A stretch of DNA of 64,000 nucleotides from an uncultured Methanosarcinales archaeon. Lineage in GTDB: Archaea; Nanobdellota; Nanobdellia; Woesearchaeales; JAGVZT01. Numbering within the stretch: position 1 is the stretch's first letter; each line of letters opens with the position of its first letter. The notes under the pieces were generated by a model. It saw nothing but the letters and a program-made list of their open reading frames with translations. It was not told the origin of the DNA and did not search any database. Positions 9,727-49,900 of this stretch are shown here, piece by piece. Location: assembly GCA_964354685.1 (NCBI GenBank), contig CAYHAM010000006.1:9523-73522 (forward strand), read 5' to 3'. A program made the translations under genes and the position numbers.

Positions 9727-9741
9727 CTTACTTTTGTACAC

Positions 9742-11625: not shown

Positions 11626-11626
11626 T

Positions 11627-24830: not shown

Positions 24831-24907
24831 AATCTTGCTTCTCTCTCTTACAAACCTCCTTGCTCTAGGCTTTGGAGGCTTGAGTATAAAAAACAAAAAA
24901 TCAAGCC

Positions 24908-28182: not shown

Positions 28183-29349
28183 ATGAGAATAGGTTTGTTT
28201 TGTTCAGATCCTTTTTACTTTCCAGGGGGTATCCAGGAGCATGTTAAAGGACTATATGATTTCCTAGTCAAGAGAGGTCATTATGTTAAGGTGCTAGTCC
28301 CAAGATACAAAAAAGGTGAGTATTATGGAAGAGATTTTATACTGATTGGCAACTCCAAGTCAATTTCAGGAAATGCTGGCTCAAGCAATCTTAGCTACTG
28401 TTTTAAAACATCAAAACTCAAAGCTCTTCTGAAAAAAGAGGATTTTGATATTATCCATCACCACAACCTAGGATTTTTCTTAGGACTACAGCTTCTAAAT
28501 TCATCAGACTCTCTGAACATCATAACCATCCACACCTCTTTAGATGGAAGCAGATTCTATAGGTTTAACCAAAAACTCTTTAATCTTTGGATTAAAAATT
28601 ATGTTGTAAAAAAATTTGCAGGTGGAATCTTAATATCAAAACACGTAGGGGAACTCATAGATTTAAACAACTTACTGAAGGGACAAAACAAACCAATTTC
28701 AATAATCCCAAATGGAATTAACCTAGACAGATTTAAACCCACAAACAAAAAAATTGACAAGTTCCAAGACAGTATGATAAATCTGCTCTTTGTAGGGAGA
28801 ATTGAGAAGAGAAAAGGACTACCTTATCTAATCAAGGCTTTTGATATGGTCAAAAAGAGGAATAAAAATTCTAGATTAATTATTGTTGGTGATGGGCGTG
28901 ACAAAGAAAAATGTCAGAAAATAGTAAGAAAAAACAAAACAAAGGATGTTGTATTTGTTGGACAGATTTCTAATGATGATCTCCCTAACTACTATGCAAC
29001 CGCAGACATATTCTGCTCACCAGCACTCTATGGCGAGAGTTTTGGGATTGTGCTTTTAGAAGCCATGGCATCTGGTAAGCCGGTTGTTGCTTTTGCTAAT
29101 CAAGGTTACAAAAAAGTTTTGATTGGTGATGGAGGAAAATTCTTAGTTGAACCTAAAAATATAGTAGGGTTAGCTAGGAAATTAGAAATATTGATTAATG
29201 ACAAAAATTTGAGAAAAGATATGGGTAAATGGGGGATAAGAGAAGCAAAGAAATACTCTTGGAACAATATAGGAAAACAAGTAGAAAACTTCTACATAAA
29301 AGTATTAGAAAAAAATAAGAATGAGGTGAGCTTGTGGAAGAAAACATAA
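28183..29349 (+). CDS. GT4-family glycosyltransferase (PimA-like)
   Basis: GGIQEHV, FVGRIEKRKG, ESFGIVLLEAMASGKPVVA; CCGAAAATATTAAAA upstream. Confidence 0.93.
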   Translation: MRIGLFCSDPFYFPGGIQEHVKGLYDFLVKRGHYVKVLVPRYKKGEYYGRDFILIGNSKSISGNAGSSNLSYCFKTSKLKALLKKEDFDIIHHHNLGFFLGLQLLNSSDSLNIITIHTSLDGSRFYRFNQKLFNLWIKNYVVKKFAGGILISKHVGELIDLNNLLKGQNKPISIIPNGINLDRFKPTNKKIDKFQDSMINLLFVGRIEKRKGLPYLIKAFDMVKKRNKNSRLIIVGDGRDKEKCQKIVRKNKTKDVVFVGQISNDDLPNYYATADIFCSPALYGESFGIVLLEAMASGKPVVAFANQGYKKVLIGDGGKFLVEPKNIVGLARKLEILINDKNLRKDMGKWGIREAKKYSWNNIGKQVENFYIKVLEKNKNEVSLWKKT

Positions 29350-29926: not shown

Positions 29927-30901
29927 TTAAACAACAGCAGAGAATGTTACTGTTCCATTGCAGAATCCCCTGGCAGAGCCAATAGGAATTCTAAGCTTCC
30001 AATATGTTGTGTTTGTTGAATTCAAATTAGCACCATCACCATCATCAACTTTTTGCAGAATCTTGTAACTAGGTATACCTAATGGCAACTTTTCATCTGT
30101 TAAATTCCACATGGCAGTGTCAAAATCCTTAGCACTAGTAACATTATACCTAAGATTACTGATTGTTATATTGCCAATTGTACAATTCATAGACAAGTTA
30201 TCACCATCTACAACTCCATACCCGTCAAGAGATAGGTTGATGTGTACATTTCCCGTGTTTGTAACATTAACATTCTTTTCCCCTGCGTTTGTTGTTGTTT
30301 CCCCAGGCGTCATCTCCCCAAAATCAATCAAATTTGTGGAAAGATTCAAAGCAGCTAGTTGGGTTATTGTAGGAGGTGTAGCATCAATAGATGTGTTAGA
30401 AATATTACTAGAATCCCTAGCAGACACATTACAATTCCACGAGGCATTGTTAGCATAATACCAAACACTGAAATTGCATGAGATTGCTAAAGCAGATACA
30501 TTTATTGAAGAGTTTGAGCAGGTTGTGGAAAAATAATGATAGTTATTATCATTTGCTGAGCTTGAGTTATAACTTGTTGCATCATAAATAGTTGCATTTA
30601 CTGCAGTTATATCACCCAAACCATTTAAATCATTAATTGTAGCATTACATCTTAGCAATTCAGTTGTGCCTTCACTCAAACCAATACTAGCTTGATCCCC
30701 GTCATCATGCTCGTACAACACAACCTGAGTAATAGTTGGTCCAATATTAGTAACATTAACCCTTGACTCAATAGATGTATTGTCATAGTAAGCAGCATTA
30801 CTTGTATCACTTATTGATACTAATAGATAGATACCTAATATTGTAAATAAAAATATGCAAGACAATGCCAACAATTGCTCTTTTTTCATTGTAATTTTCA
30901 T
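29927..30901 (-). CDS. Secreted protein (324 aa), second subunit-like family: Ig domain plus SCPU/WxL-like terminal domain
   Basis: Signal peptide; IDFG...NVTNTGN...LSMNCTIGNI...YWKLRIP...GFCNGTVTFSAVV. Homologous to the C-terminal half of 9742-11625. Confidence 0.88.
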   Translation of the reverse strand: MKITMKKEQLLALSCIFLFTILGIYLLVSISDTSNAAYYDNTSIESRVNVTNIGPTITQVVLYEHDDGDQASIGLSEGTTELLRCNATINDLNGLGDITAVNATIYDATSYNSSSANDNNYHYFSTTCSNSSINVSALAISCNFSVWYYANNASWNCNVSARDSSNISNTSIDATPPTITQLAALNLSTNLIDFGEMTPGETTTNAGEKNVNVTNTGNVHINLSLDGYGVVDGDNLSMNCTIGNITISNLRYNVTSAKDFDTAMWNLTDEKLPLGIPSYKILQKVDDGDGANLNSTNTTYWKLRIPIGSARGFCNGTVTFSAVV

Positions 30902-30922: not shown

Positions 30923-31702
30923 TTACGATAACTCAACATAAAAGTAATAATCTGTTTGTAATGTAGCAGGGCTGCCATTCTCTGCTATCAGCATCTGAAA
31001 ATCATAGGTTGTATTTGCAGCATCATTTTTATAACCATCAATATTGTTTTCTATCTTAGTTACATATATTAAATTAGCACTCCCATCATAAAGCAAAACC
31101 TCGTCAAACCATTCTGTGGAGCTTTGGGCACTATCATTAATCCATGTGTTGATTGAATAATTACAGGTGTCAGTAATTATATGACTACTACCTGCCCAAA
31201 AATCCCAATGGTCATTTCCATCATCATCAAAAGTGTTATTCATTGGATCATCAGGAGTGTTTGTTGTGTTGTGGTGCATATCTGCCATTTCATCTGCAAT
31301 ATGTGTTGAGTTTGCACACACCACATTATCCCAACTAATGGTACTTGAAGTTCTAGTAGCATAAACCTCTCCACCAACTATTGACACACTCCACTCATAT
31401 ATTGAATAATTGCTTGCATCCTCCAAAACATATGCTCCAGTAACATTTCCAACATAAGCCTTGTAATGAGGGTTTGCCTGCCTTGCTGTGAGCCTCAATG
31501 TAATAATCCTACCTCCTTTACTATCATTGTTATCTTCCACTGTTGGAACACCTGATGCTGCTGATGTTTCATTGCTAACCCACTCCAAACTTGGTCCTGT
31601 CGGAACAGCAGCAAATACACTCTTTATCAAAGTCAATGTTACTAATACAGCAATGACTAATACCAATACCAATTCCACTTTTTCTCTACTTGTCCTTGTC
31701 AA
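30923..31702 (-). CDS. Secreted ~250-aa subunit-like protein, subtype A (A3)
   Basis: TTG start 6 nt after GGTGA; AVPTGP, YKAYVGNVTG, terminal YYFYVELS; 11 N-x-S/T sequons counted. Confidence 0.92.
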   Translation of the reverse strand: MTRTSREKVELVLVLVIAVLVTLTLIKSVFAAVPTGPSLEWVSNETSAASGVPTVEDNNDSKGGRIITLRLTARQANPHYKAYVGNVTGAYVLEDASNYSIYEWSVSIVGGEVYATRTSSTISWDNVVCANSTHIADEMADMHHNTTNTPDDPMNNTFDDDGNDHWDFWAGSSHIITDTCNYSINTWINDSAQSSTEWFDEVLLYDGSANLIYVTKIENNIDGYKNDAANTTYDFQMLIAENGSPATLQTDYYFYVELS

Positions 31703-31741: not shown

Positions 31742-32500
31742 TTACTCAATTTCAACCCAAAAGTAATAATCTACAGGGCTTGTGTCACCATCATGTCCAT
31801 CTTCTCCAACTAGCATCTGGAAGTCATAGTTGTCTGTGCCAGTCTTGAACCCATCAGAGCCACCTTGATGGATAAATGCCATGTAAATCATCCCATTGTC
31901 AGAGCTGCTCCAAAGCAAAGTTTCATTAAAATTCCTGCTCGCATCTACCGCATCATTCACATAAGTGCTCACAACGAAATCGCACTCATCAGCTGCAAAT
32001 GTGTTGTTTCCAACACTAAAGAAAGGATGAGTTGTAAGGTTGAATGTCTCATTGATACCATCTACATCTTGCCCTAAGTTGTTGAAGTTGAGTCTAGTTT
32101 CTTCTGTTTGAATCTCTGTTATATTTGTACAATGCACATTGGGATCAGTCCAATTCACACTATTGTTCCTAGTTGCGTAAATCTCACCCTCAGGATCAGC
32201 CAAGTCCCATGAATACATTGTGTTGTTGAGTGCATCATCTAATGTTATAGTACCACTAATATTACCATAGTAACCCTGCCAACCCCTGGTTACCACAGTG
32301 GCACTCATGTTTAGCTCACTCACATTACCAGCCTCTGCCTGTATATACCTTACACCAGCATAGGGTCTTCTAGATACATTTATTATAGTAAATTCCTGGT
32401 TTGGAGGCGTAGGCACGTTTTGATATCCTGCCAAAACAGAAACTGCTATTAAAGCAAATACCAATATTATTATTGTCCAGTTTGCAATTGTCTTCTTCAT
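31742..32500 (-). CDS. Secreted ~250-aa subunit-like protein, subtype B (B3)
   Basis: GAGGTGATC ribosome-binding site; GWQGYYGNISG, EDGHDGD, terminal YYFWVEIE. Confidence 0.93.
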   Translation of the reverse strand: MKKTIANWTIIILVFALIAVSVLAGYQNVPTPPNQEFTIINVSRRPYAGVRYIQAEAGNVSELNMSATVVTRGWQGYYGNISGTITLDDALNNTMYSWDLADPEGEIYATRNNSVNWTDPNVHCTNITEIQTEETRLNFNNLGQDVDGINETFNLTTHPFFSVGNNTFAADECDFVVSTYVNDAVDASRNFNETLLWSSSDNGMIYMAFIHQGGSDGFKTGTDNYDFQMLVGEDGHDGDTSPVDYYFWVEIE

Positions 32501-33054: not shown

Positions 33055-33813
33055 TTACTCAATCTCAACCCAAAAGTAATAATCTACAGGGCTTGTGTCA
33101 CCATCATGCCCATCCTCTGCCACGAGCATTTGGAAGTCATAATTGTCTGTTCCTGTTTTAAAACCATCAGAGCCACCTTGGTGGATAAATGCCATGTAAA
33201 TCATCCCATTATCAGAGCTGCTCCAAAGCAAAGTTTCATTAAAATTCCTGTTTGCGTCTACAGCATCATTTACATATGTACTAACAGTAAAGTTACATTC
33301 ACTTGCTGTGAAAGTATTGTTCCCAACACTGAAAGCAGGATGCGTTGTAAGACTAAATGTTTCATTTATACCATCCATATCTTGCCCCAAATTGTTAAAG
33401 TTGAGCCTAGTTTCTTCTGTTTGAATCTCTGTTATATTTGTACAATGAATATTAGGATCAGTCCAATTTACACTACTATTCCTAGTTGCGTAAATCTCAC
33501 CCTCAGGATCAGCCAAGTCCCATGAGTACATTGTATTGTTGAGTCCATCATCTAAAGTTATAGTACCACTAATATTACCATAATAACCCTGCCAACCCCT
33601 GGTTACCACAGTGGTACTAATATTTAACTCACTCACATTACCTGCTTCTGCTTGTATTGATCTTACACCCGCATAAGGTCTCCTAGAAACATTCAATATA
33701 CTAAACTCCTCGTTTGGGGGCGTAGGTACATTCTGGAATTCTGCTAGAACAGAAACTGCTGCTAGAGCCAAAACCAAAATTATAAGTACCCAGTTTGCAA
33801 TTGTCTTCTTCAT
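33055..33813 (-). CDS. Secreted ~250-aa subunit-like protein, subtype B (B4); recent duplicate of B3
   Basis: Same length (252 aa) as B3 and roughly 85-90% identical by eye; same ribosome-binding site. Confidence 0.93.
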   Translation of the reverse strand: MKKTIANWVLIILVLALAAVSVLAEFQNVPTPPNEEFSILNVSRRPYAGVRSIQAEAGNVSELNISTTVVTRGWQGYYGNISGTITLDDGLNNTMYSWDLADPEGEIYATRNSSVNWTDPNIHCTNITEIQTEETRLNFNNLGQDMDGINETFSLTTHPAFSVGNNTFTASECNFTVSTYVNDAVDANRNFNETLLWSSSDNGMIYMAFIHQGGSDGFKTGTDNYDFQMLVAEDGHDGDTSPVDYYFWVEIE

Positions 33814-34340: not shown

Positions 34341-37300
34341 CTACTTTAGTTCAATATAGAACGAGACACTATTATATATACTCTCTTTATACTCTCTTAG
34401 CCTTGCAGGCACCCTTATTTCATAATCATATACCCCGTACTTACCTTGGCTTTGAACATTTACCTTTGTTATGAACACAAGATCTTGAGTGCCATTGTAC
34501 TCTCCATTGTTTGGATCACTGTAATCCCACAATATCCCAGTAATAAAGTTGGAAGTATTTGTTGAGTTAGCTATGGACACATTTGTTATATTAACACCAT
34601 ATATAACAAAACTTATTTTCAATTTTGGAACACCATTATTAGTGTAGAGCTTATAAACTGAGTCATTTGCAGTTGACATGTTCATAGCATTATCTATCTC
34701 TGCAAAGTCATTGTTTGCAGTTAGGTTAGAGGTGTTTATACCTATTGCTTGCAGGCTTGTCCAACTAACATCAGCACCTGTTTCTACAACAAAAATATTG
34801 CCCCCACTTGAGCTATTCCACGCTATTTCAGACAAATTCTCAACAGTACTTAAAACAACCTTTCCAGAAGCATTCCCATAGTAAACATGCCATGATGGCA
34901 TATAATAGGTTGTGTTTGCATAGTTGTTGTTCTCATAGAGCTCAAATATAGTACCATTTGTTCCTATAGGTGGATCAACAACAACATAAATATAGTGAGC
35001 ACCAATCATTGGAGTCCATGTAACATTTACTGTCTTGTTTGAGTTGTTGCCACTTGGATCTGTCAAGTTACCTATTGTAACATTCACATTTATTTGGCTT
35101 CCATTATCCCAATCACCATCAAAGAACTGCACAGTTATATTATAAGCATCAGAACCGCCAATATTATATATAGTAGCAAATATTGTAATATTCTCTCCCT
35201 CAACAGCTGAGTAATCGCTAAAAGTTATATCAGTGCTTTGCAAAGTCAAGTCAGGAGGTCTTATCCATATTTGCCAAGTTAAAGACGAGTTCTCATTACC
35301 ATAATAATCAGTACAATTCACACTCCAATTATGCCACCCACCTTGTGGAATCCTTGGATAAAAAGGATTGATTGTATCTTCTAAAATTGGTGGATAATGA
35401 GTATCATCCACAACCCCATCAATAATCAATGAGCAGTTTGCAATGCTGCTATGTGTATCATTAACAATATATGTGAAAACAACAGAACTATTTGCCTCAG
35501 ATCCATTTGGTGGCGTGTTAAGCTGAATGCTTGGAGATGCCTCATCATAAGTCAACTCAAAAAAAGAATGATTGTAAGTATTTTTGTAAAGGGTTTTTGT
35601 TCCAAGCGACACTGCTGTGTAATTGCCAGTTGGTTTGCCAGAAACATTCCATGAATATGACCAAAGCCCATCTGAACCAGTCTGTCCAGAGCTTTTATTA
35701 ATCCAAACACTCAAGCTTCCAACACTTGAGGATACTCCTGTAGTCACTCTACCATATCCGGTTATATTCACAGCATCCCAACCAAACCAATCCGAGGTTC
35801 CATAATCAGCTTTTACATTTGATGAGGTGAATCTTATGGTGAGTGCTTCGCTACAGCTTACTCCACTTACAATACACAAATCTTGCATCACAAACTCAGC
35901 TCTTGTTCCCATACCAGCTGTGGTTCCAATCTCACACGCTTCATCATTCAGACAGTCTGAAATCAATCTCAAAGTTGCATCACTGTCATTCACAAACACA
36001 GCAGAACCCTCCCCACTGTCCATTGAGGCTGCAGCTTGATAATATGAGAGATTCATAGCAACACAAACTCTGCCACCACAGGGTGTTGCATTGACAAATT
36101 TAAACAATCCATCTCCTGTTGAGGTGGTGTGCCTCTCTATTCCTCCTGTTGATTCAAACCCTCTCAACCCACTAGTATTCATATCTGTTGATGAACAAAC
36201 ACCATAACTAGTAGAGGACTCACTTTCAACGCAAGCATCAAAGCCATCATAAGGATCACTATCAATACACTCATAACTTCCATTTGTTGGGCAAGATCCA
36301 TTGTACATCCGGAAGTTGGTGCCTACCTCAAAATTATCATAAAGGATAGAATATGGATACAAATTATTTGGCCAAGAATAACTTGGCTGAGTTGCTTGTG
36401 AATTATTATAATACACAAAGTACCGATTTTCATTAATAGCATTTGCTGAAACACTTCCGATAAAGAGTATCTCACAATACGTTGAATTATCCCCTCCAGT
36501 CACATTAACAGGAACCTCTTTGCTTGAGTTTGTCTCTATTACCCTTATCTCATTTACACAACTAGATATATTCCCATTCAATCCAGTAACACTCACCCCT
36601 ATAGTTTCATTTACCCTTTCTCTGTTTTCTGTCTCACTCAAAAATATTGGCTTTCTTCTCTGCCAAGAAATGTTCCACCAAGGTACAGTGCTATTACCCA
36701 AGATTATATCTAACGTAACATTCGTATCCAATGGGTCATGTGTTGCATCTGTTGTGTTGGTTGTTATGTTTGCAACATCAGCAAGTTCATTCCCCATTTC
36801 ATACTTGGCTTTGTTATTAGAAACATTAACATGCATAATATATTGTATATTCACTGTTAATAGCCTTGTCTCTGATGTGTTTTGATGGAAGCTATTATCA
36901 AAATCATCAAAGCAAGTTATATTCCAATAATAGCCACCATTTGTCATGTTTGTCACATTGAATTGCAATGTTTGGTCTTCAGGCATTGGAGCATACATAG
37001 TATTATTTATTGTTCCACCAATTATTAATGAACAGTTTGTAATGCCTGAAGCAACATCTACAACACTGAACAAAAAGTACACATTACCATCAGCATCCTC
37101 TGCTCCAGGACTAGGCGAGATCAAACTAATGCTAGGACCATTGTTGTCAATTTTAATGTTTGTATGAGTATTATTATTACCAACATTGCCCAATGTGTCA
37201 TTTGCAAAAGCCAAAAATTGATAGCTATCTCCATCTGCTAAGCTACTAATATCCCAGCTGCAATTATAAGGAGCATTGCCATCATCATCAACACAAGCTA

Positions 37301-40300
37301 AATTCCAAGATGCTGCTGGGCCAGTCCTATACTCAAATCTTACCACGCTAATATTCCCAATCCCAATATCAACAACACTTGCATTCACCATATAGGTTGA
37401 GCCAGAGATATCCCCAAGGTTTGGTGGTCTATCAAGGGTTGTGGTTGGACCAGTGCTTTCGATATAAACATTTCTAAACTCAGAACCATTTTTATTACCT
37501 AGCATGTCCGTACAATTTATACTCCAATTATAAGCACCTTCATCAAGGTTGTACAAACTGAAGTTCTGGATTTGGTCCTCCTGCACACTAAAATTTGTTT
37601 GGTTAATACTTCCATTAATTACCAGTGAACAATTCCTAATATCACTAGTCAAATCACTCACATTATAATAGAAGGTAACATTCTCCACAAAATATTCATT
37701 GTCAGCAGGCGCCTCTAATTTAATACTAGGTGCTGTTCTGTCAATAGTAATATTATAGTTTGTATTATAATCTCCCCAATTTCCAATTGTATCGTTAGCT
37801 CTAACTCTGACTTGATAACTGCTGCTATCTCCATAATCTGTGAAATTCCATAAGCACTCAAAAGGCACTCCATCTGTGTCATTGCAAGCATTCTTCCATG
37901 TTGCTGTGTTATTTTCCCTAAACTCAAACACAACCCCACTTATATTACCTATCTCATTGTCTATTACAGACGCATTCACTGTGTATGAATTTACAGTTAG
38001 GTTAGTATAATTCTGAGGTTTATCCAAAATTGAAACAGGCCCTGCTGTGTCAAATCCAACAATTATTGTGTTATTGTTCTTCAAACCATTATCGTCAGTA
38101 ACTGTCAGCATTAAATAACAATCTAGTGTGTTGTTAGCACACTGTTCTTGAGTAGAGGTGTTAAATGTGCAATTTGCATCCGCACTGTCACATATTGTCA
38201 TTGGTGAAGTAAAATCCGCATTGTCATCAAGTTGGAAAAGATAATTGCTAATGCTTCCATCAGAATCATAAGAAGCAGAACCATTCAACACAACACTAAA
38301 CCCAAGCCATGTATTATTAGCAGGATAAATCCAGTTTGCAAAAGGATGGTCATTGATTGTAAGATTAACATCACCGGAAAAAACTGTGGCGCTATTATTA
38401 CTCGTAACCTTACATCTAATCCCAAAAACATTGTTACCAGAATCTTGCCCACTAGTTATATTAAAGGTGCGATTGCATGCATCTCCACCAATCGTTAAAT
38501 TTCCGCAAATAAAACTATCTTCATCATTTATTAAGTCTATGGTTGAAGTTGTAATATCCTGCCATGAACTATCTTTGTATTGTACAAACAAAACAACATC
38601 AGTACAATTCAAAGCACCTGGCTCACACCTTACACTGCAATTCATCTCAAATGTATAGTTGGTAGTTTCACTTGATTCATTAACTTCAATATCAGAGGTT
38701 GGATAAGTCATATTAATACTCAAGTTTCCTGCAGCAGTAACATTCCAAGTTAAGCCAATATCTAAGGAAGCCAAATTGGCTGCAGAGTCATTTGCATAAG
38801 CTATTGTCCAGTTGTATTGGCCAGAGAATTGTAATAGATACTCTGTAGAATAAACATTATCACCATTTTGACTATCACAAGAACTTGTTTCATTGTCATA
38901 TAAGGTTATGTTTATTGCAGGTTGACCTGGATTTAAGATATTAGCAAGCACCTTATCAACACCAGAGTAAGTATCTGTGACAGTTATATTTAAACACACA
39001 TAATCATTCACATCAAACGTATTGTTATCTATATTTGGATTGCTCAACTGGGGATCTGTTGTATCAACACCAATTGTCCTTGTCTCTGATTCATTCATGT
39101 TGTAATTACTGCTATTGTCATAACAGCGTATGCTCCAATTAAAGTAAACAGTGCTGTACTCGACCCTTAACCAAATCGCATCTATGCTTACAATCTCATT
39201 ATCAGGCAAACCAACCTGCAAACCCTCTACCCCTAAATATATCTTGCTTAAATCATCCCAATCAAGATAAGCAGTAATTGGATAATAATCATTTCTTAAA
39301 CTGCTACTTTGGTTAGCAATACTAGAACCGTTATACGAAGTTCCATCCAAATTAAGCCAAGTTGTGCCATTATCCAAGCTATACTTCAAAGTCAACTCAT
39401 CATTGCCAATACCAGCTGCTGAAAAGTTAGATCTCAAAGCAAGGTAAACATTGTTAATTGCCCCACTACTTGGCAAGCCAGAGAAGTTTGCTGTAAACAG
39501 TTCATTACCATTATCAGTCTCGTCCCATGCAACAACATTATCAGGAGCCTCATCTGCTTCCTCCGGATTGTTTGCCCAATCACCACTATAAGAGTCAGCA
39601 GGAGCATAAAAATTTGTTGTAGTTGAGTTATCCAGATCTTCAGTAAAGTTTAAAGTCTGCTCTTTAATAATAGTATAATTGGTTTGAGAAATCACTCCAC
39701 CAATTATTAGAGAACAATTCTCCACACCAGATCCAGAATCATTAACACTATAATAAAATGTGACAGTTGTACTAGTGCTCCAGGCATCATCTTCAGGATT
39801 GACGACCTCAATACTTGGTCCATAATTATCTGAACAAACACAACTACCTGCCTGACAAGTGCCATCTAAGAAAGCCCCACAATCATTATCACATTCAGTA
39901 TCATTACATTGTGCAGGATTATTTCCATCCCACACATCTCCAATCTGCAAAGTATCATTCAAAATTGTTGTTGTTCCATTAGCACAATCATCACTCCTAT
40001 CAGCATAGGTAACCCCAGAATCATAATAGATAGTACCTGAATCTGTACATTCAGATGAACAAGGAGCAGTTGGAGCAGGAGAATAATCACCACTTTGATT
40101 ACTGGTCGCATTACAGTAATCACAATAATCCTCTCTCAAAACACCTGAAGAGCTTAGATTAGCTCCAAAAGTATCCAAGCATTGTCTGCTCCAGTAACAT
40201 GTCTGAGTCTCATTTGGATTTGTTCTATCATCATAACCACAAGCCCCGCCATCATAATCATCAATACAAAACTCTGGTGCATCCTCGCTGTTCTGCACCC

Positions 40301-43300
40301 AAGCACAAGAGTCATTGCATGCCTTGTCATAATAACAAATATTATCAACAACACTAGGTGTTGTGTCATTGTCAACATCACAGCTCGCTTCGCAACCAAC
40401 ATCACAATCAGCTGCAACACTACCACAACTCCCTCCTTCTAAATAAACATAATCTCCACAATCAGTTGATGATCCAGTACAACCAAAGTTCCCAGAATCT
40501 TGATCACCACTTGAACAGCTCTGATCAATTGCATAATAGCTACAATTATAACCAGTATGAGTTGAGGTACTTGCACTCAGGTTAGCACCTTGATTTTGAT
40601 CAGCACAGTACACCCAAACCCCCCACAAGTTTGAAGAATCACAGCTTCTGTAATCATTAGTTGTGTTACACAACCTGTAATTCACATCATAAGTATAACC
40701 TGTGTTGTTGTAAACACAATCATCTGCATCACCACTACAATACCAACCGGTGTATATATAACTTGTGTCATTAATACATTTACCAGTATCAGCCCCCCCT
40801 CCGCAAACCTCATCATCATTGCCATCACCATACGCCTTACCAGAACAAGGGTAACCAGTTAGCTCGTCATTACCACAATCCTGTAGAATATTACAATATT
40901 GGTTATCAGGACAATCAGTATGCACATCGCACAATATATCAACAGCAATATTAACATTAGTTGTTGTATTATCAGCCCAACCATTTGTCGAGTTACAAGC
41001 AACATACAAATATGTTTCATTTATTGGAAATTGGCTACCACTCCAAGCACAGCTTATATTTGTTGTGCCATTTCCACTACAATTAGTGTTATCACTCATA
41101 TCAGCATAGCTCTCATCAGAGCCACTCATCCTACAATTCCCATTCTTGTTGAGTGTTAAATTTACTATAGGAGATCTCTGCACAGTTGTCCAAGGAGATT
41201 CTGTATCCTCACCAACTGCTGTAACTGTCTTCTCAATAGGGGCAGCATCAACAGTAACAGTATAATTAACATCATACCAATCTGACAAACCTGTTTGGTC
41301 AAAACACTGGATATTCCACCAATATGTCCCATCTTTTACACTCACTGCTATCTTTGTCTTTGTGTTGTTTGCCACATTGTAGACAGTGGCATTTGGCAAC
41401 CAAGTGCCATTAAAATTGGCCCACAAAGTACAATTTGCTAAAACAATGTCATGGCTGTCAGTAACAGTGAAATTAAAATCTATTGGTAAACTCATAACAA
41501 TTGTGTTATTACCAGGATAATCAAGTGAGGTAACATTTGGTGGATTTGCAAAACCAGTTATATTAATGCTATCCCAGAAACACCAGTCTGCTCTTCCATC
41601 AGCTGTACCACCTATATGGATTGAAATATTCTCAGACAAATTGATTCCACTCAATGAAGACAGATTTACATTAAAGAAGGTATAACCAGCTGGTGTTGGA
41701 GGAGTAGTGTCTGCCCTTGCATGATCACAGGCAGCACCATTAGCACATTCGTAGATTGTTGCAGTACTATTAGAGTCATTTACCCAAATCCTACAAAACT
41801 CACTAGCATCTAAGCTTGCAGCATAATGATAACCCCTCACATTTATATTATCATATTTGCTTGGATCAAACTTGTATATCAAACCACCTCCCCAATTAAA
41901 ACCATCCATCTCTTGCATAAGTAAAGAATAACCCACAACCCCATAGTTGTTTATACACATATCAAAGCTATCTGCATCATAGGCATCACTACAATTATTG
42001 AACTCACCCCAAGGAATGTTTTGAGTACATCCTGCTGAAGTAGGGCATTCTGTATTAGTGCTCGCATTCAAAAAATCATTAGTAAAATCTTCAAACATTA
42101 TTCCCAAGAATGTTGGGTCAACTGCTAGGTACCAATACCTAAACTCTGTGAATATCCCTCCATTATAATAAACCATAGCCTTCCCAATCTTGTACAGCTC
42201 AGGGCTTACAAATGGTGGTCTTGCAGAGTAACTAACAACTGAATTGTTACTCAAATCACTCCAAGATAATATTTTTCTATTATCAGCAAGGCTCTCAACA
42301 GCCCCTCCATTATCTAGAACAGTGAAGTTGAGTGGCAATGACTCAGAAAAATCAAATGATACCTCATCAACATAGGAGACAATCTTAATTGAAGATGTGA
42401 ATGCACCCATCCAAGGATCAGTTGTAACAGGTGTCTGCCTCAAAATATCAAACTCATAAAACTCTTTAACAGTAAAGTATGAGAACATCGTATTATTAAC
42501 ATTACTCCCAGTTGCATAAACAACCATAGAGTAATTGCCCTCGGTATTTGTAAGAGAATAATTAGTTTCATAGATGCCTCTCTGAGTCTCAATTATTGTG
42601 TTTTGTTTTGTAGACAACCATGTTGAAAAATTGGTTGGATTGGTAATCATTAAATCAACACTAGCGTCCTTAACCAAGTGACCATCCTTGTCTAAAACAA
42701 CAATTATGATCTCAGCAACCTCTCCTGGATGATAGATAGACCTCTTTGTGTTAATACTTGCAACACCTGTTTCAGCATAACCAGGATCCTCTTTTGTTAT
42801 TGTGAATGAATACTCTTGCCCTGGAATGATGTCCATAACCTTCTTCCACTCGCCATCACACACCTCTGCCTCAAAGTTCCAGTCCTCGCACTTGTACAGC
42901 TCCTCGCCCTTAGCAACAACACTAACAACACCACTTGTAAAATTCAACCTTGTTGGATCAATTGCATAAACCTGTATCCATACCTTGTTTTTAACAGAAG
43001 GAATCTCTTTTGAAACAGCAGCCAAACCAAGATCAATATTATCTTTCTTAATCTCCAAATCCTTGAACTCTATCTTTTTAATTGGAGTCTCTTCAGGAAT
43101 TATCTCAGCATCATACAAACCATGAGTTAAATTCTCAATTGATTTAAAACTCCCACCAGTCTTCCTATTGTAAAACAATCCTTCAGCTCTTATATTCCTG
43201 CCAGCAACACTCTTGATATCAAACTTACTAATCTTCCCCTCTATTTTCTTCTCTATTTGGACTTCTATTCCTTCTTCTTTTATCTCTTCTTCAATCACTT

Positions 43301-43949
43301 GTCCTGATACAGCTTCTTTAACAACAAAACTGGTAGAATCAATAACAACACCATTAAACCTTGCTAAAATTGTGTAATTACCAACATCTTTTGGAACAAA
43401 AATCATAATTCTATCTGGTTGACCCAAAAACTCATACTCCTTTCCCTCAAACTCCACTATAATCCTTTCTCCAGCCACTATACCTCCAACATGTTGTATA
43501 ACCACATTCTCTCCCAAAGAATAAACCATTTTGTCAGTTTTTATGATTCTTTTACTTGTCACTATCTTCTCTTCTTCCCCTTTCCCTTCTTTCACTATTT
43601 CAAAGCTCACATCATCAATCAAATCCAAAGTAACATGGTTCACTAGCTTTATTGTATAACTGCCTTCTTTTCTTGGTATAAACTCAATACACTTTTCCAA
43701 ATTACCCATGTACTGATAAACATCTTCTTCCACAATCACAAAAAGAGACAAATCCCCAAAATCATCTACGCCAATACAAACATTAACAGAATCTCCTAGA
43801 GCATAACTTGTTTTATCAACACTTAGTATCCCTCTTGGCTGAAAGAATTCTTCTTCAAAACCCTTGATGCTTATTATTTGGAGTATAAACAACATCATAA
43901 TTGACACTACAAAAATCCATTTTTCTTTCCTAACCATCTCTTCTATCAT
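34341..43949 (-). CDS. Giant secreted adhesin-like glycoprotein (3202 aa): N-terminal AIDP...DPGYAE domain, MG2-like domain, jelly-roll domains, ~38-Cys region, Ig repeats, DUF2341-like domain, CARDB, C-terminal subunit-like domain
   Basis: ORF track. Signal peptide and no C-terminal TM helix; ends YYGNASG...YDYEIRVP...FYIELK. ATGA overlap with the 5598-aa gene. Confidence 0.93.
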   Translation of the reverse strand: MIEEMVRKEKWIFVVSIMMLFILQIISIKGFEEEFFQPRGILSVDKTSYALGDSVNVCIGVDDFGDLSLFVIVEEDVYQYMGNLEKCIEFIPRKEGSYTIKLVNHVTLDLIDDVSFEIVKEGKGEEEKIVTSKRIIKTDKMVYSLGENVVIQHVGGIVAGERIIVEFEGKEYEFLGQPDRIMIFVPKDVGNYTILARFNGVVIDSTSFVVKEAVSGQVIEEEIKEEGIEVQIEKKIEGKISKFDIKSVAGRNIRAEGLFYNRKTGGSFKSIENLTHGLYDAEIIPEETPIKKIEFKDLEIKKDNIDLGLAAVSKEIPSVKNKVWIQVYAIDPTRLNFTSGVVSVVAKGEELYKCEDWNFEAEVCDGEWKKVMDIIPGQEYSFTITKEDPGYAETGVASINTKRSIYHPGEVAEIIIVVLDKDGHLVKDASVDLMITNPTNFSTWLSTKQNTIIETQRGIYETNYSLTNTEGNYSMVVYATGSNVNNTMFSYFTVKEFYEFDILRQTPVTTDPWMGAFTSSIKIVSYVDEVSFDFSESLPLNFTVLDNGGAVESLADNRKILSWSDLSNNSVVSYSARPPFVSPELYKIGKAMVYYNGGIFTEFRYWYLAVDPTFLGIMFEDFTNDFLNASTNTECPTSAGCTQNIPWGEFNNCSDAYDADSFDMCINNYGVVGYSLLMQEMDGFNWGGGLIYKFDPSKYDNINVRGYHYAASLDASEFCRIWVNDSNSTATIYECANGAACDHARADTTPPTPAGYTFFNVNLSSLSGINLSENISIHIGGTADGRADWCFWDSINITGFANPPNVTSLDYPGNNTIVMSLPIDFNFTVTDSHDIVLANCTLWANFNGTWLPNATVYNVANNTKTKIAVSVKDGTYWWNIQCFDQTGLSDWYDVNYTVTVDAAPIEKTVTAVGEDTESPWTTVQRSPIVNLTLNKNGNCRMSGSDESYADMSDNTNCSGNGTTNISCAWSGSQFPINETYLYVACNSTNGWADNTTTNVNIAVDILCDVHTDCPDNQYCNILQDCGNDELTGYPCSGKAYGDGNDDEVCGGGADTGKCINDTSYIYTGWYCSGDADDCVYNNTGYTYDVNYRLCNTTNDYRSCDSSNLWGVWVYCADQNQGANLSASTSTHTGYNCSYYAIDQSCSSGDQDSGNFGCTGSSTDCGDYVYLEGGSCGSVAADCDVGCEASCDVDNDTTPSVVDNICYYDKACNDSCAWVQNSEDAPEFCIDDYDGGACGYDDRTNPNETQTCYWSRQCLDTFGANLSSSGVLREDYCDYCNATSNQSGDYSPAPTAPCSSECTDSGTIYYDSGVTYADRSDDCANGTTTILNDTLQIGDVWDGNNPAQCNDTECDNDCGAFLDGTCQAGSCVCSDNYGPSIEVVNPEDDAWSTSTTVTFYYSVNDSGSGVENCSLIIGGVISQTNYTIIKEQTLNFTEDLDNSTTTNFYAPADSYSGDWANNPEEADEAPDNVVAWDETDNGNELFTANFSGLPSSGAINNVYLALRSNFSAAGIGNDELTLKYSLDNGTTWLNLDGTSYNGSSIANQSSSLRNDYYPITAYLDWDDLSKIYLGVEGLQVGLPDNEIVSIDAIWLRVEYSTVYFNWSIRCYDNSSNYNMNESETRTIGVDTTDPQLSNPNIDNNTFDVNDYVCLNITVTDTYSGVDKVLANILNPGQPAINITLYDNETSSCDSQNGDNVYSTEYLLQFSGQYNWTIAYANDSAANLASLDIGLTWNVTAAGNLSINMTYPTSDIEVNESSETTNYTFEMNCSVRCEPGALNCTDVVLFVQYKDSSWQDITTSTIDLINDEDSFICGNLTIGGDACNRTFNITSGQDSGNNVFGIRCKVTSNNSATVFSGDVNLTINDHPFANWIYPANNTWLGFSVVLNGSASYDSDGSISNYLFQLDDNADFTSPMTICDSADANCTFNTSTQEQCANNTLDCYLMLTVTDDNGLKNNNTIIVGFDTAGPVSILDKPQNYTNLTVNSYTVNASVIDNEIGNISGVVFEFRENNTATWKNACNDTDGVPFECLWNFTDYGDSSSYQVRVRANDTIGNWGDYNTNYNITIDRTAPSIKLEAPADNEYFVENVTFYYNVSDLTSDIRNCSLVINGSINQTNFSVQEDQIQNFSLYNLDEGAYNWSINCTDMLGNKNGSEFRNVYIESTGPTTTLDRPPNLGDISGSTYMVNASVVDIGIGNISVVRFEYRTGPAASWNLACVDDDGNAPYNCSWDISSLADGDSYQFLAFANDTLGNVGNNNTHTNIKIDNNGPSISLISPSPGAEDADGNVYFLFSVVDVASGITNCSLIIGGTINNTMYAPMPEDQTLQFNVTNMTNGGYYWNITCFDDFDNSFHQNTSETRLLTVNIQYIMHVNVSNNKAKYEMGNELADVANITTNTTDATHDPLDTNVTLDIILGNSTVPWWNISWQRRKPIFLSETENRERVNETIGVSVTGLNGNISSCVNEIRVIETNSSKEVPVNVTGGDNSTYCEILFIGSVSANAINENRYFVYYNNSQATQPSYSWPNNLYPYSILYDNFEVGTNFRMYNGSCPTNGSYECIDSDPYDGFDACVESESSTSYGVCSSTDMNTSGLRGFESTGGIERHTTSTGDGLFKFVNATPCGGRVCVAMNLSYYQAAASMDSGEGSAVFVNDSDATLRLISDCLNDEACEIGTTAGMGTRAEFVMQDLCIVSGVSCSEALTIRFTSSNVKADYGTSDWFGWDAVNITGYGRVTTGVSSSVGSLSVWINKSSGQTGSDGLWSYSWNVSGKPTGNYTAVSLGTKTLYKNTYNHSFFELTYDEASPSIQLNTPPNGSEANSSVVFTYIVNDTHSSIANCSLIIDGVVDDTHYPPILEDTINPFYPRIPQGGWHNWSVNCTDYYGNENSSLTWQIWIRPPDLTLQSTDITFSDYSAVEGENITIFATIYNIGGSDAYNITVQFFDGDWDNGSQINVNVTIGNLTDPSGNNSNKTVNVTWTPMIGAHYIYVVVDPPIGTNGTIFELYENNNYANTTYYMPSWHVYYGNASGKVVLSTVENLSEIAWNSSSGGNIFVVETGADVSWTSLQAIGINTSNLTANNDFAEIDNAMNMSTANDSVYKLYTNNGVPKLKISFVIYGVNITNVSIANSTNTSNFITGILWDYSDPNNGEYNGTQDLVFITKVNVQSQGKYGVYDYEIRVPARLREYKESIYNSVSFYIELK

Positions 43950-46900
43950 TTTATCTCAACATAAAATGTCACACTGTTTTGGGTATTTGGTTGTATATAT
44001 CCTCTTAACATAGCAGGAACCCTAATCTCAAAATCATAAACCCCATACATACCTGTTTTATTCTCATTAACCTTTGTGATAAACACAACATCTTGGGTAC
44101 CATTATATTCTCCATTGTTCGGATCATTGTAATCCCATAAAATTCCAGTAACAAAGTTTGATGTGTTTGTTGAGTTAACAATTGCAACATTGTTGATTGT
44201 GTTGCCATAAGCAACCCAGCCCATTGATAATCTCACACCCCCATTCTCAGTCCATGTCGTGTTTATTGAATCAGGATTCTGAGTCATGTTCATAGCAGTA
44301 TCTGCCTCATCAAAGTCATCCATCTGCAGGCCATTGATTGTATCCCTTGATACTGCCTGTAAACTATCCCACTTGACTATGCTATCAGAATCAACAACAT
44401 AGATGTTACTATTTGTATAATTACTAACATTCCAATCAAACAACGACATGTTTGTTGTGTCATAGAGCTGTAACAATCCTGTAATATTACCAATCACTAT
44501 CTCATATGAGCCAACAATGATTATATTATAAGCAAGGTTGTTAGACTCATTTGCCTCAACAATTGAACCATTTGTTGCCAAAGGCGGATCAACCACAACA
44601 TAGATGTTTGTGGACCCCATCTTGACAATATATGTAGTATTTACAGTTGCATTTGTCCCTAGAGGTAAGCTGTTAATTGTCTTGTTCCCGTTTATTTGAT
44701 TGTCACTACCTGGATAACCTTCAAAGAATTGCACTGTTATATTAGCAGCGTCCCCATTACCAATATTGTAAATTGTTGCATTGATTGTTACATTTTGACC
44801 TTCACTAAATGAGGTTTGATTGAACACAATATCTGAATTATTCAACGTAAGATCAGGCACCTCAATAAAGTAAGACCTTGTTTCACTTGTGTTCCAATTT
44901 CCTGCATTATCCCAACAAGTAACATTCCAATAATGCCATCCAGGACCCTGATCAGTTGCAATTGTTGAAACTTCAGTGTTGTTCAATGCACTGAAGTTTG
45001 CCCTATAAACAGAACCATCAATAGTCAAATTACATGTAAGATTATCATCAAGATTGTCAATTACAGTAAAGTTTAATTCAACAGAGGTAGATGAACTGTT
45101 GTGACCCTCCTCTGGATAAGTTAAATTAATAGAAGGCTTTGTAATATCAACATAAATTGTTATTGGTGTTGAATTTCTAATATTATTAACATTATCAAAT
45201 GCCTCGAGTATAATCTCATGCGATCCTTCCCCAACACCCACTAAATTTGTTGAGTTTGTACTACCATTGGTAGCAGTACCATTCACATTCTTTACTCCGT
45301 CAACATAGAATGTATAGTTTAAAACCTGATCAAGATTATCAGTTATATTGAAATAAATTGTTGGAGTAGTGGTATTAAACCATGTGCCATTAGCAGTTTC
45401 AATGTATGGATATGGTGCAATAATATCAACATACAAAGTGCGATTACTCGTAATTGTATACATATGTTGCGATGTATTATCATAACACTCAACAGCCCAA
45501 CTATAGCTTCCATTTAAATAATACACTGTGAAGTTGTTCATTGCATTGTTAATTATCTCTGTATTATTCTTTGTATCATTTATTTGTCCATCTAGTAACA
45601 AACTACAGTTCTCAATTCCAGTATCATCACTCACATTAAAATAGAAAGTCTGGTTCTCAACATTAGTCCAATTATTATCCGCTGGGCTGACCAATGTTAT
45701 ATTTGGAGCTATATACACAAAGAAATGTTTGGTCTCACTAGTGTTAATATTGGTGGCATTATCCCAACAACTCACATTCCAATAATAAGTTGTCTCATTC
45801 AACCAAGAAACTGTTGTATTGATCTCAGAGCCATTATTAGCAGCAAAATTCTCTCTGATTACACCATTATTCAAAGTGAGATTACACCTCATTTCATTAT
45901 CCATATTATCAGTAACTGTGAAATTCAAGTCAATTATTGTGTTTGTGTAATTCAATCCATTAGATGGATAAACCAAATTAATTGAGGGATTTATTTTATC
46001 AACCCTCAACAACCAGGTACTGCTATTACCCTCTGCACCGAACACGTCAGTACAATTAACACTCCAGTTATAGAATTTTGTGGCAATGTTCACAACACTA
46101 AAGTTATTCATTGCATTGTTAATTATCTCTGAGCTGTTCTTTGTGTCATTGATTACCCCATTCAATATCAAGGAACAATTTCTAATACCAGTAGTATCGT
46201 TCACTATAAAGTAGAATGTCTGATTCTCTGCATTACTCCATGAACCATTAGGAGGATTAACCAATGTAACATTTGGTGGAACAGCAAGATTAAATGTTCT
46301 TGTTTCACTGGTATTAATATTGCTAGCATTATCCCAACAACTCACATTCCAATAATAAGAACCCTCAACACTTCCAGTGTATGTTGTTTTAATCTCTGTG
46401 TTGTTATCAGCAACAAAATTCTCCCTATACACAGAACCATTCACAGTCAAGTTACACCTCAACTCATCATCCATATTATCAATGACAGTGAAATTCAAAT
46501 CAAGTGTGAATGATGTAGAATTATAACTCTCTTGTGGCCATGTCAAATTAATACTTGGTAAGATCCTATCAAGGTTTAGTCTCCAAGTTGTGCTATTACC
46601 TCTGGTATTAAAGTCGTCATAACACTCAACAGACCAATTGTAGAGGTTTGATTTTATATTATACACAGTGAAATTGTTTTTGGCATTATTTGTTACCTCA
46701 CTGCTATTTTTTGTAACATTAACCAGCCCATTGAGTATCAATGAGCAATTGTTAATACCAGTATCATCGCTCACATTGAAGTAAAAGGTCTGATTCTCAG
46801 CATTGCTCCAACTATTGTCTGGTGGACTGTCAAGGATTACAATAGGTGGAATAACAACATTAAATGATCTTGTTTCACTGGTATTAATATTGCTAGCATT

Positions 46901-49900
46901 GTCCCAACATGTAACATTCCAATAGTATGTGCCTTCACCAGTAGCAGTATAGGTTGTATTAATCTCTGAATTATTAGCAGCAGCAAAATTCTCTCTATAC
47001 ACAGAGCCATTAACAGTTAAATTACATCTCATCTCATCATCCATATTATCAATTACACTGAAATTAAGATCAAGGGTGAGCGAACTAGAATTATAACCGT
47101 TTACAGGCAGAGTTAGGTTAATGAATGGTTTTATCCTATCAACCTTTAACAACCACGTTGTGCTATTGCCTTCAACATACAAGGAGGTGTTATCAGTGCA
47201 ATTCACACTCCAGTTGTAATACCCTGATTTGATATCATAAACAGTAAAATTATTTACAGCATTGTTTGTTATCTCACTACTGTTCCTTGTATCATTAATT
47301 TGCCCATTAAATATCAAGCTGCAATTCTCAATTCCAGTATCATCACTCACATTGAAATAGAAAGTTATATTCTCACTATTATTCCAAGTGTCATGTGCAG
47401 GAACTATTAACTCCACAACCGGAGCCAGATACACATTAAAACTCCTTGTTTCACTTATATTCCAGTTTGTTGCATTATCTACGCAAGTGACATTCCAATA
47501 ATACGTTGTCTCATTCAAACCACTAATAGTTGTATTAATCTCAGTATCAACATATGCAACAATATTTTGCCTATAAACATCACCATTTAGGGTTAGATTA
47601 CAAATAAGCTCACTATCCAAATTATCACTAACAGAAAAGTTCAACTCAATTGTTGTTGAGGTTGTATTAACTCCTTGTGGTGGGTAAGTTAGATTAATAG
47701 AAGGTTTGGTTGTATCAATATAAATTATTATTGGTGTTGAGTTCACAACATGCCCTGCCTCATCACTTGCCTCCAAAACAAGCTCATAAACACCATCTGT
47801 TTTTGAGCTTAGGTTAATTGAAGTTGTAGTGCCATTGTTCACACTGCCATTGGCCTCATGGCTCCCATTTACATATAGAGTATAATTTAAAATGTCATCT
47901 AAATTGTCAGTTATATTAAACAATATTTCAGGAGTTGTGTCATTAAACCATGTTTGATTAGCAGTCTCAAAAATAGGAGATGGATTGCTCAAGTCTATAT
48001 TTACCTTTAGAGATGTTGAATTCTTACTCCTACTCAAATTATCAGTAGCCTGCACAATTATATAATGCACACCCTCACTCAATGTAACATTCAACAGCTT
48101 GCTCACATTATCACTAGCACTACCATTCTGGCCATTAAGGATACCATCAACAAATATGCTGTAATTGATAGATCCATTGGTAAAGTCCTGAAGTGTAAAG
48201 TTTATCTCAACTGTTTCATTATCTTGCCAAGAGTCATTCTGAGGGCTATTTATTGTAGAAATAAGCACAGATATGTTTGTTGTGGCATTGTTGTTGCTCT
48301 CATTAAGCTCAGCTATATTATCATCAGGATCAACAACAACCCAAATTGTATGATAACCAGCAGTGATAATCCATGAAATATTAAAAGTGACTGTTGCATT
48401 ATAACCAACATCTTTTGTATTATTTCCTATAAATGTTCCACTTCCAGGTAAGCCATCCCAAAACTCAACCAATACATTACTTGCATCAATCCCCCCAATA
48501 TTGCTAACATTGGCAAATATTGTAATATTCTCATTTAGATCAGGATTACTATTGTTAAAAGAGATCATAGAATTGTTGATAAACAAATCAGGCTGATTTA
48601 TTGTGAAATTGCCAGTAAAGCTTGTGTTGCTATTACCCAAATCATCAACACATGATACACTCCAGTTGTGAGCACCATCTGCTAATCCATTAACCTCTAC
48701 TAGGAAATTAGTACCACTCGTATTTGTAATGTTTGTAACATTTACAGCACTATCAATAGTGAGGTTACAAGTGATGTTTATTCCAGGTGCATCTGTTGGC
48801 GTCCAGTTGAATGTTATATTGTTATAATTGATTGCTTGTCCTTCACCAGGATAATTAAGTACTATCGATGGTCCAAGAGTATCTATTGTAAAGTTCTCAT
48901 AAGGTGCTGTGTAAGGATTTAGATCAGGAGCTTCATCTATACATTCTACACTCCAATTGTAATACCCATCCGAAATGTTTGTAAGATCAAAGTAATTGGG
49001 TTCATTCCTCTCTATACTTGAATCGCTATTATTGAACACCCCATTAATATATAATGAACAATTATTAAATCCAAAATAGTCATACGGAGTATAATTAAAT
49101 GTCATATCTTGACTAGTTGTTCTATAATTGTCTATAGGGAAATTCAAAGTAACATTTGGAGGAGCTTCAACTGTGAAGTTTATCAAAATGTATGAATTAG
49201 TATTATTTGCATGGTCAATACAGGTTACTGACCAATTGTAATTGCCATCATATAACTCACTATACCTTGTAACTGTGCTTCCATTTGAAACACTAACATT
49301 TTCCCATTCCACACTATCTACAACAGTAATATTACATATTAACTCATCATCTAAATTATCTGTGACCGAAAAACTGAAAGTTACATTATTCCAAGTAACA
49401 GTTTCGTTATTGTATGGAGTGATTATCGTGATGTTTGGGGAAGTAGTATCTATTATCAATTGCCTTTGAGGCGATCCTGTTCCCTCCAGTTCATAAATAT
49501 CAGTAGCATTTATAGTCCAATAATACAAACCATCTTCTGAAAAATTGAATAAAAATGAATTTTTCTCACCATTCTCAAGACTCGTGTCATTCTCAGTTTT
49601 AACATTATTTATTATGAGAGACGCATTTCCCAGACCATCAGCATCAACAGGGATATAAGTAAAATTTACATTTTCACGATAATCCAAAATGGTCCCATTA
49701 TCAGGACTCACCAGAGCTATATAAGGGGGATTGTATATTGTAAAATTCCTTGTCTCACTTGTATTGGTATTGTAAGCATCATCCCAACAGGTTAAATTCC
49801 ACCAATATACACCATCCAAATTTATTGTTATAGTCTGGTTAATAACAGAGCCATTAATTGCGGGGATGTTTGATTCATTAACCTCACCATCTAGTGTCAA

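Follow-up and report, generated by a model that had tools for sequence, protein, structure and literature searches.

A conserved domain of about 153 amino acids (aa) is encoded exactly three times in a stretch of 64,000 nucleotides (nt) from an uncultured archaeon (contig CAYHAM010000006.1; in the following, the window), and in two giant surface proteins this module is nested inside another beta-sandwich domain. The carriers are a protein of 627/632 aa, which has the module at its N-terminus, and two giants of 3202 and 5598 aa (in the following p632, p3202 and p5598; the 627-aa protein is the 632-aa open reading frame (ORF) counted from its ATG). We consider it rather probable that the module is an uncatalogued jelly-roll of the carbohydrate-binding module (CBM) or lectin type, whose copies entered the two giants within this lineage and which likely serves as a ligand-binding head. 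As part of this explanation, the family would be specific to giant, heavily N-glycosylated surface proteins with immunoglobulin (Ig)-like repeats of Woesearchaeota-like archaea, which belong to DPANN (Diapherotrites, Parvarchaeota, Aenigmarchaeota, Nanoarchaeota and Nanohaloarchaeota).

The case is one of real but old and ordinary domain shuffling with an uncatalogued domain family. New here are the family itself, which has no curated model and comprises about ten representative clusters among 1.84 billion, and the in-genome triplication of the module into three architectural contexts. The CBM/lectin-type jelly-roll fold, the Asp-box, the giant Ig-repeat proteins of DPANN archaea and the nested insertion of domains are already known, and no new mechanism or principle is revealed. 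The module provides a handle for experiments on DPANN surface proteins. The giants among these proteins are almost wholly unannotated and prime candidates for the attachment to partner cells, and the module, which is compact, confidently foldable, constrained and present on three proteins, is their most obvious piece for binding tests. It also shows, in a clean natural case, how a jelly-roll can be nested within Ig-like domains, and its alignment can serve as the seed of a new domain family.

Three copies and their host domains

The original prediction had described a conserved module of about 150 aa in three proteins, and the translations of the window indeed gave the consensus that it had quoted. 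With one copy as a tblastn query, the other two were recovered with E-values between 1e-72 and 1e-75, and the count of three was obtained with a hidden Markov model (HMM) of the family in all six frames. A possible fourth copy at positions 5542-5754 (tblastn, E 0.002) was dropped because the family HMM gave no confirmation. The pairwise identity among the three copies is 71-75% for the protein and 72-73% for the DNA, whereas the remaining regions of the three proteins are 27-47% identical, or 55% over one Ig stretch of 64 aa. In 60-nt windows, the nucleotide identity is 58-88% within the module and drops to a background of 20-37% about 30-60 nt from either edge. The copies are far more alike than their surroundings, as had been claimed. 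Direct repeats are not visible at the module junctions.

A DNA-level mobile element was rejected as an explanation because of the missing junction repeats, the DNA identity of merely 72-73% and a synonymous divergence (dS) of 0.9-1.7. An intein or self-splicing insert was rejected as well, in agreement with the earlier statement that intein-type termini are absent. The module starts with (F/Y)YA...SYGGDW and ends with ...IWLRV(N/E)YS without His-Asn, it contains neither Cys nor an endonuclease domain, and its predicted fold is a jelly-roll, that is, a beta-sandwich.

The window derives from a metagenome assembly, in which repeats can be collapsed or chimeric, and an assembly artefact or a chance similarity has to be considered. 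We give this explanation hardly any credence. The copies differ at 27% of their nucleotides and are therefore not a duplicated assembly path, and all three lie in frame in long ORFs with match E-values of 1e-72 or better. Moreover, an identical p632 gene is present on a Logan contig that was assembled independently, and module-bearing orthologous genes are present in three other assemblies.

For the analysis of the host domains, the module was excised in silico and the rejoined hosts were compared with the rest of the proteins. With the module removed, the p3202 host and the first Ig-like repeat of p632 (aa 184-318) align with no break at the junction (45% identity over 141 aa). The junction reads ...TLNFTEDLDNSTTTN/TVYFNWSIRC... 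in the rejoined p3202 host (the slash marks the excision site) and ...TLNFT, a gap of five positions and ITNIGDNIYNWSINC... in the p632 repeat. The N-terminal part of the p3202 host aligns to this p632 repeat and, like the rejoined host, to the p3202 repeats at aa 2070-2168 and 2223-2379. In p5598, where the junction reads ...YFNATLTNESG/SEYWEYDVSD..., the excised host is 45% identical over 185 aa to a sister without the module, with one 1-residue gap at the junction, and 36% identical to a second module-free sister. Both nested insertions are real because excision restores the alignment of each host with module-free sister repeats; the predictions that the module interrupts an Ig repeat in p3202 and a repeat with module-free sisters in p5598 were both borne out. 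The two host domains are different kinds of beta-sandwich. Pfam did not recognise the excised host repeats, and their identity comes from the alignment to the sister repeats, among which there are Big_7 matches.

In a jelly-roll, the first and last strands lie side by side. Judging from this general fold, the termini of the module would adjoin in space and let the host domain re-close around the insert. Nested CBMs are already known, for instance CBM4 in GH10 and CBM58 in SusG (PMC7848910). Unlike these, the module has Ig-like beta-sandwiches and not enzymes as hosts.

All large genes of the window are located on the minus strand, and the surface-protein genes form two clusters (Table 1). The first cluster consists of the 993-aa gene, the 632-aa ORF and a giant ORF running off the window, and the second of the 5598-aa gene followed by the 3202-aa gene. 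The stop codon of the 5598-aa gene and the start of the 3202-aa gene share a 4-nt overlap (43946-43949), and these two genes therefore probably form a single operon. The 993-aa and 632-aa ORFs overlap too (11627-11640), and both overlaps suggest translationally coupled operons. The carrier proteins possess N-terminal hydrophobic segments and 5-6 N-x-S/T sequons per 100 aa, which indicates that they are extracellular. In the surface proteins of the window, Pfam detects the domains Big_7, Big_13, Big_3_3, CARDB, MG2, NPCBM_assoc and DUF2341. The G+C content of the window is about 35%, and the nearest named relatives are designated Candidatus Woesearchaeota archaeon in the NCBI naming (two close relatives, one of which is among the nine full-length carriers described below).

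Table 1 Positions of the module copies, their host domains, the carrier genes and other features of the window
Feature	Position	Strand	Remarks
Module copy A	11089..11547	-	p632 aa 32-184; N-terminal, after the signal/anchor segment and before the first Ig-like repeat
Module copy B	39153..39611	-	p3202 aa 1447-1599; nested in Ig-like repeat
Module copy C	57392..57850	-	p5598 aa 965-1117; nested in beta-sandwich domain
Asp-box (S-x-D-x-G-x-T-W), copy A	11293..11316	-	SLDNGSTW
Asp-box, copy B	39357..39380	-	
Asp-box, copy C	57596..57619	-	
p3202 host Ig-like repeat, N-terminal part	39612..39833	-	aa 1373-1446; ends ...TLNFTEDLDNSTTTN
p3202 host Ig-like repeat, C-terminal part	39000..39152	-	aa 1600-1650; begins TVYFNWSIRCYDNSSN...
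p5598 host beta-sandwich, N-terminal part	57851..58096	-	aa 883-964
p5598 host beta-sandwich, C-terminal part	57083..57391	-	aa 1118-1220; continues into DUF2341-type region
p5598 host sister without module	55079..55627	-	aa 1706-1888
Second p5598 host sister without module	53159..53689	-	aa 2352-2528
Gene, 627/632-aa surface protein	9742..11640	-	Module, two Ig-like repeats and C-terminal domain
Gene, 3202-aa giant surface protein	34341..43949	-	
Gene, 5598-aa giant surface protein	43946..60742	-	
Gene, 993-aa protein	11627..14608	-	Cluster 1
Giant ORF running off the window	1..9741	-	Cluster 1; at least 3247 aa
Asp-box-like string SLDIGLTW	38745..38768	-	p3202 aa 1728-1735; outside the module
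Seven paralogous secreted proteins of about 250 aa	23270..24034, 24078..24911, 24908..25669, 26725..27501, 30923..31702, 31742..32500, 33055..33813	-	
Gene, 324-aa protein	29927..30901	-	
Gene, glycosyltransferase	28183..29349	+	GT4 family
Gene, longer protein of a pair with a common N-terminal segment	16514..18376	-	
Gene, shorter protein of the same pair	18363..18932	-	

An uncatalogued jelly-roll family

No model of Pfam or NCBIfam, including those for CBMs, scored above its threshold for any of 12 family members, and a sequence search of the PDB gave no significant match to the module. With one module as query, a word-indexed search of 5.8 billion proteins returned zero matches. When 1.84 billion representative proteins were searched exhaustively with the HMM, 42 matches were obtained, of which only nine contain the whole module (P0001-P0007, P0012 and P0018, all outside the window). 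Most of the remaining matches are multi-Asp-box proteins, which align only along a short Asp-box stretch of about 30 residues. The match P0010 is a fragment of 74 aa (...EADSSPDNVVAWDETDNGNELYTANFSGLPGSGTI...) that is nearly identical to the p3202 copy, and a close copy must therefore exist elsewhere, in one or more of the other organisms or strains sampled. Furthermore, a genome scan yielded one Woesearchaeota contig, and two scans of metagenomes added only the contig of P0044, a protein that came from a later word-indexed search.

All full-length carriers are Ig-repeat proteins rich in N-glycosylation sequons. P0001, P0002 and P0044 are orthologs of p632. In P0004, P0006, P0007, P0012 and P0018, the module stands in tandem after a complete Ig repeat. 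Among these, the distant giants P0007, P0012 and P0018 have the N-terminal region of about 600 aa in common with p3202, carry one module at aa ~1150-1400 and form a divergent clade.

An AlphaFold2 model computed with the three window copies alone was unusable, with a predicted local distance difference test score (pLDDT) of 53, whereas an alignment of 12 sequences gave a usable, all-beta model (pLDDT 93.8; predicted template modelling score 0.89), in which the terminal strands comprise residues 4-7 and 146-159. When this model was compared with the PDB by Foldseek, the top matches were jelly-roll CBMs, namely 8wab (template modelling score (TM) 0.60), CBM16, CBM4-2, CBM15, CBM32 and CBM36, followed by the phi812 baseplate protein, reelin repeats, Eph ligand-binding domains and a gingipain adhesin domain. 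Among the viral models of BFVD, the best matches were uncharacterised phage proteins and minor-tail/fibre proteins (TM up to 0.69, E 4e-6). The original prediction of a jelly-roll domain, which had proposed this comparison with CBMs, agrees with the model and with matches that are mostly CBMs, reelin subrepeats and phage tail/fibre proteins. The module is supported as an autonomous beta-jelly-roll domain at the level of the predicted fold.

Each module contains one canonical Asp-box (SLDNGSTW, SLDNGTTW and SLDGGTTW in the three copies). Asp-boxes are known in jelly-rolls such as reelin and tend to be located at domain-domain interfaces (PMC2716378). In the distant clade, the Asp-box is degenerate, although the domain is otherwise conserved. 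One Trp, three Gly, two Leu and four Asp are invariant across the 12 members, and the four Asp may be compatible with a putative structural Ca2+ site of the kind that is common in such modules. The module is acidic, with 20-24 Asp and Glu versus 5-6 Lys and Arg, and it has zero Cys and two sequons that are kept in all three copies. About 130 residues downstream of copy B, and thus not within the module, p3202 contains a second Asp-box-like string (SLDIGLTW).

The recurrent sub-threshold Pfam matches are Reelin_subrepeat-B (five of the 12 members), BNR_4 and BNR, and all of them are centred on the Asp-box. A BNR/Asp-box beta-propeller was rejected because there is one Asp-box per module and a sandwich fold is predicted; propeller proteins align only over the Asp-box stretch of about 30 residues. 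The Reelin subrepeat B, an Asp-box jelly-roll, resembles the module in its single canonical Asp-box hairpin and was matched by Foldseek (2ddu, 5b4x and 7lyu; TM 0.36-0.45). However, the best score for Reelin_subrepeat-B (PF21471) is 15.8 bits (E 0.01) and lies below the gathering score of 27 bits, and the module is archaeal and has neither an EGF module nor an A/B pairing.

The module also resembles jelly-roll CBMs. Like the chondroitin-sulfate-binding module 8wab, CBM16 (2zex), CBM4-2 (2y6j), CBM15 (1gny), CBM32 and CBM36, the module comprises about 150 residues and is all-beta (TM 0.45-0.60), it is acidic with conserved Asp and aromatic residues, and it is mobile in multidomain extracellular proteins. 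Unlike them, it falls outside every CBM model of Pfam and NCBIfam and is not accompanied by an enzyme in the same polypeptide. The jelly-rolls of phage receptor-binding, minor-tail and fibre proteins (BFVD; phi812 baseplate, 9euf_H) gave the best structural scores overall, and they are likewise modules on long repetitive stalks for the recognition of surfaces. However, the sequence identity is 10-15%, most of these matches are uncharacterised, and no phage-like genes are located around the carrier genes within the window. Finally, the carriers resemble the giant Ig-repeat surface proteins of DPANN archaea and of the candidate phyla radiation (CPR) in their size (3,000-5,600 aa), their signal/anchor segments, their tens of Ig-like repeats, here of the types Big_7, Big_13, Big_3_3 and CARDB, and their dense sequons. 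A role in host contact has been proposed for the surface proteins of such symbionts (PMC6142677). In the literature found on these giants, a shared nested module is not described.

Age and spread of the copies

The high protein identity of the copies is due to purifying selection and not to youth. Among the three copies, dS is near saturation (1.5-1.7 by NG86, 0.9-1.1 by LWL85) and the non-synonymous divergence (dN) is 0.18-0.21, which corresponds to a dN/dS ratio of 0.1-0.2. Third codon positions are 54-56% identical, the longest identical runs measure 16-26 nt, and identical residues are encoded by identical codons in 54% of the cases versus 45% expected from codon usage alone. In comparisons of p632 with its orthologs, the module (55-59% identical) evolves no slower than the rest of the protein (49-67%). 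For these orthologs dN is 0.34-0.44 with saturated dS, and the dN of the paralogous copies is about half of this value. Moreover, a neighbour-joining tree groups the three window copies as a clade with 98% bootstrap support, with P0001, P0002 and P0044 outside. Because this clade excludes the orthologs and the dN of the paralogs is about half that of the orthologs, the module spread, or was last homogenised, after this lineage had separated from the sampled relatives. The original prediction of a recent spread is correct in this relative sense, but the event is old in absolute terms, as dS of 0.9-1.7 indicates.

The p632-type gene carries the N-terminal module in all four sampled lineages, and its neighbours are conserved. 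The presence or absence of the module at its sites in orthologs had been proposed as a check of mobility; this comparison, which was made for p632, shows that the module is ancient in that gene. The simplest history would be that the N-terminal p632 copy is ancestral and was then copied into both giants in this lineage. The copies are equidistant, with 25, 29 and 30 informative codons and a star tree whose inner node reaches 53%, and the two insertions were therefore close in time.

The same star tree would also be expected from concerted evolution, in which the module had been present in all three genes before the sampled lineages diverged and gene conversion kept the copies alike without any lineage-specific spread. 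The distant giants P0007, P0012 and P0018, which carry a module of their own, fit with this alternative, and so does the clustering of site patterns along the nucleotides (runs test, p 0.002). However, no clustering is left when whole codons are counted (p 0.37) or when the count is restricted to synonymous codons (p 0.44), and a gene-conversion mosaic was rejected because the nucleotide-level clustering is an artefact of multi-nucleotide codon changes. Furthermore, the module of the distant homologues is not nested, the p5598 host domain has two sister copies without it, the dS values mean that no conversion has occurred for a very long time, and the longest identical runs measure only 16-26 nt. 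We regard concerted evolution as unlikely.

According to the history that we prefer, the module was ancestral at the N-terminus of the 627-aa protein, and in-frame DNA copies of exactly the domain would have been placed into surface loops of beta-sandwich domains of the two adjacent giants. The insertions would have occurred after the split from the sampled relatives, yet long ago, and strong purifying selection would have held the three copies since then while the Ig scaffolds drifted.

Putative function and neighbouring genes

The module most likely acts as a ligand-binding head on long Ig stalks, probably for a glycan and possibly in a Ca2+-dependent manner. Since all three proteins display it, they would recognise the same surface, which may be that of a partner cell or the envelope of the archaeon itself. 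The original prediction had also put forward Ca2+ or carbohydrate binding and a shared host ligand; these proposals remain hypothetical, with the likeness of the fold, the four invariant Asp and the invariant Trp as indirect indications. A bolder variant is a portable specificity cassette, in which a ligand-binding jelly-roll is repeatedly copied in frame into the loops of unrelated stalk domains and simultaneously retargets several giants to one glycan of the partner cell. This we consider quite improbable. If it were true, DPANN archaea would change their host range in large part by domain hopping instead of point mutation.

It is also conceivable, if doubtful, that the module is an assembly or anchoring domain, which either binds the archaeon's own glycosylated envelope or joins the three proteins into one surface structure by protein-protein contacts of the Asp-box. 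Both p3202 and p5598 lack a C-terminal hydrophobic anchor segment, and the module itself has two conserved N-glycosylation sequons. Moreover, the C-terminal region of about 190 aa of the two giants recurs in seven proteins of about 250 aa, and the C-terminal half of p632 recurs in a protein of 324 aa; such sharing of domains by small and giant proteins points to components of a single assembly. The anchorless C-termini and the common domains lend some weight to the reading that the archaeon's own glycosylated envelope is bound. However, the distant clade has retained the domain but not an intact Asp-box, the structural neighbours are mostly ligand-binding modules, and no partner is identifiable.

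Several observations weigh against a CBM/lectin-type head that was copied into the giants in this lineage. The fold matches in the PDB are moderate (E about 1e-3, TM 0.45-0.60, sequence identity 8-17%). With respect to a CBM in the sense of CAZy, the module agrees in its fold, but it belongs to no CBM family and is not located in a carbohydrate-active enzyme; the Pfam domains of the three carriers are of the Ig-like, CARDB, MG2 and DUF2341 types, and none is catalytic. The Asp-box of other jelly-roll and Ig-like domains serves contacts between domains and not ligand binding (PMC2716378). As for the history, the donor copy was chosen by parsimony only, and the module of the distant giants could mean that the module of the giants is ancestral and was later overwritten. 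Finally, the sequence searches and scans found no orthologs of p3202 and p5598 by which the insertions could be dated. With the p3202 host region as query, only orthologs of p632 and generic Ig repeats were retrieved, and an exact look-up of p3202 gave no record. The module-excised p5598 host retrieved only DUF2341 proteins of about 620 aa, which aligned to its downstream half.

Several other genes of the window encode surface or secreted proteins as well. The giant ORF of the first cluster (at least 3247 aa) starts right after the 627-aa gene and encodes NPCBM_assoc/NEW3, MG2 and DUF11-type domains without the module. The order of the 993-aa gene, the 627-aa gene and the giant is kept on the related contigs L001 and L003. 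The seven paralogous secreted proteins of about 250 aa are 32-90% identical to each other, all end with ...YYF(Y/W)VE(L/I)x and have zero Pfam matches. Several of them, most clearly those of 258 and 259 aa, show C-terminal homology (25-28% identity, with E-values as low as 9e-14) to the final ~190 aa of p3202 and p5598, which end with ...SFYIELK and ...TFYVEIK, respectively. Over 269 aa, the 324-aa protein shares 38% of its residues with the C-terminal half of the 627-aa protein (E 1e-43) and represents a second case of a domain block that is common to separate genes at this locus. One of the few plus-strand genes encodes a glycosyltransferase of the GT4 family (Glycos_transf_1, E 1e-41) and is located amid the sequon-rich surface-protein genes. 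Two further proteins encoded on the minus strand have an N-terminal segment in common (...IPP(P/V)AAEFYG...), and the longer one also contains a Cys-rich region, a Gly run and several transmembrane-like segments.

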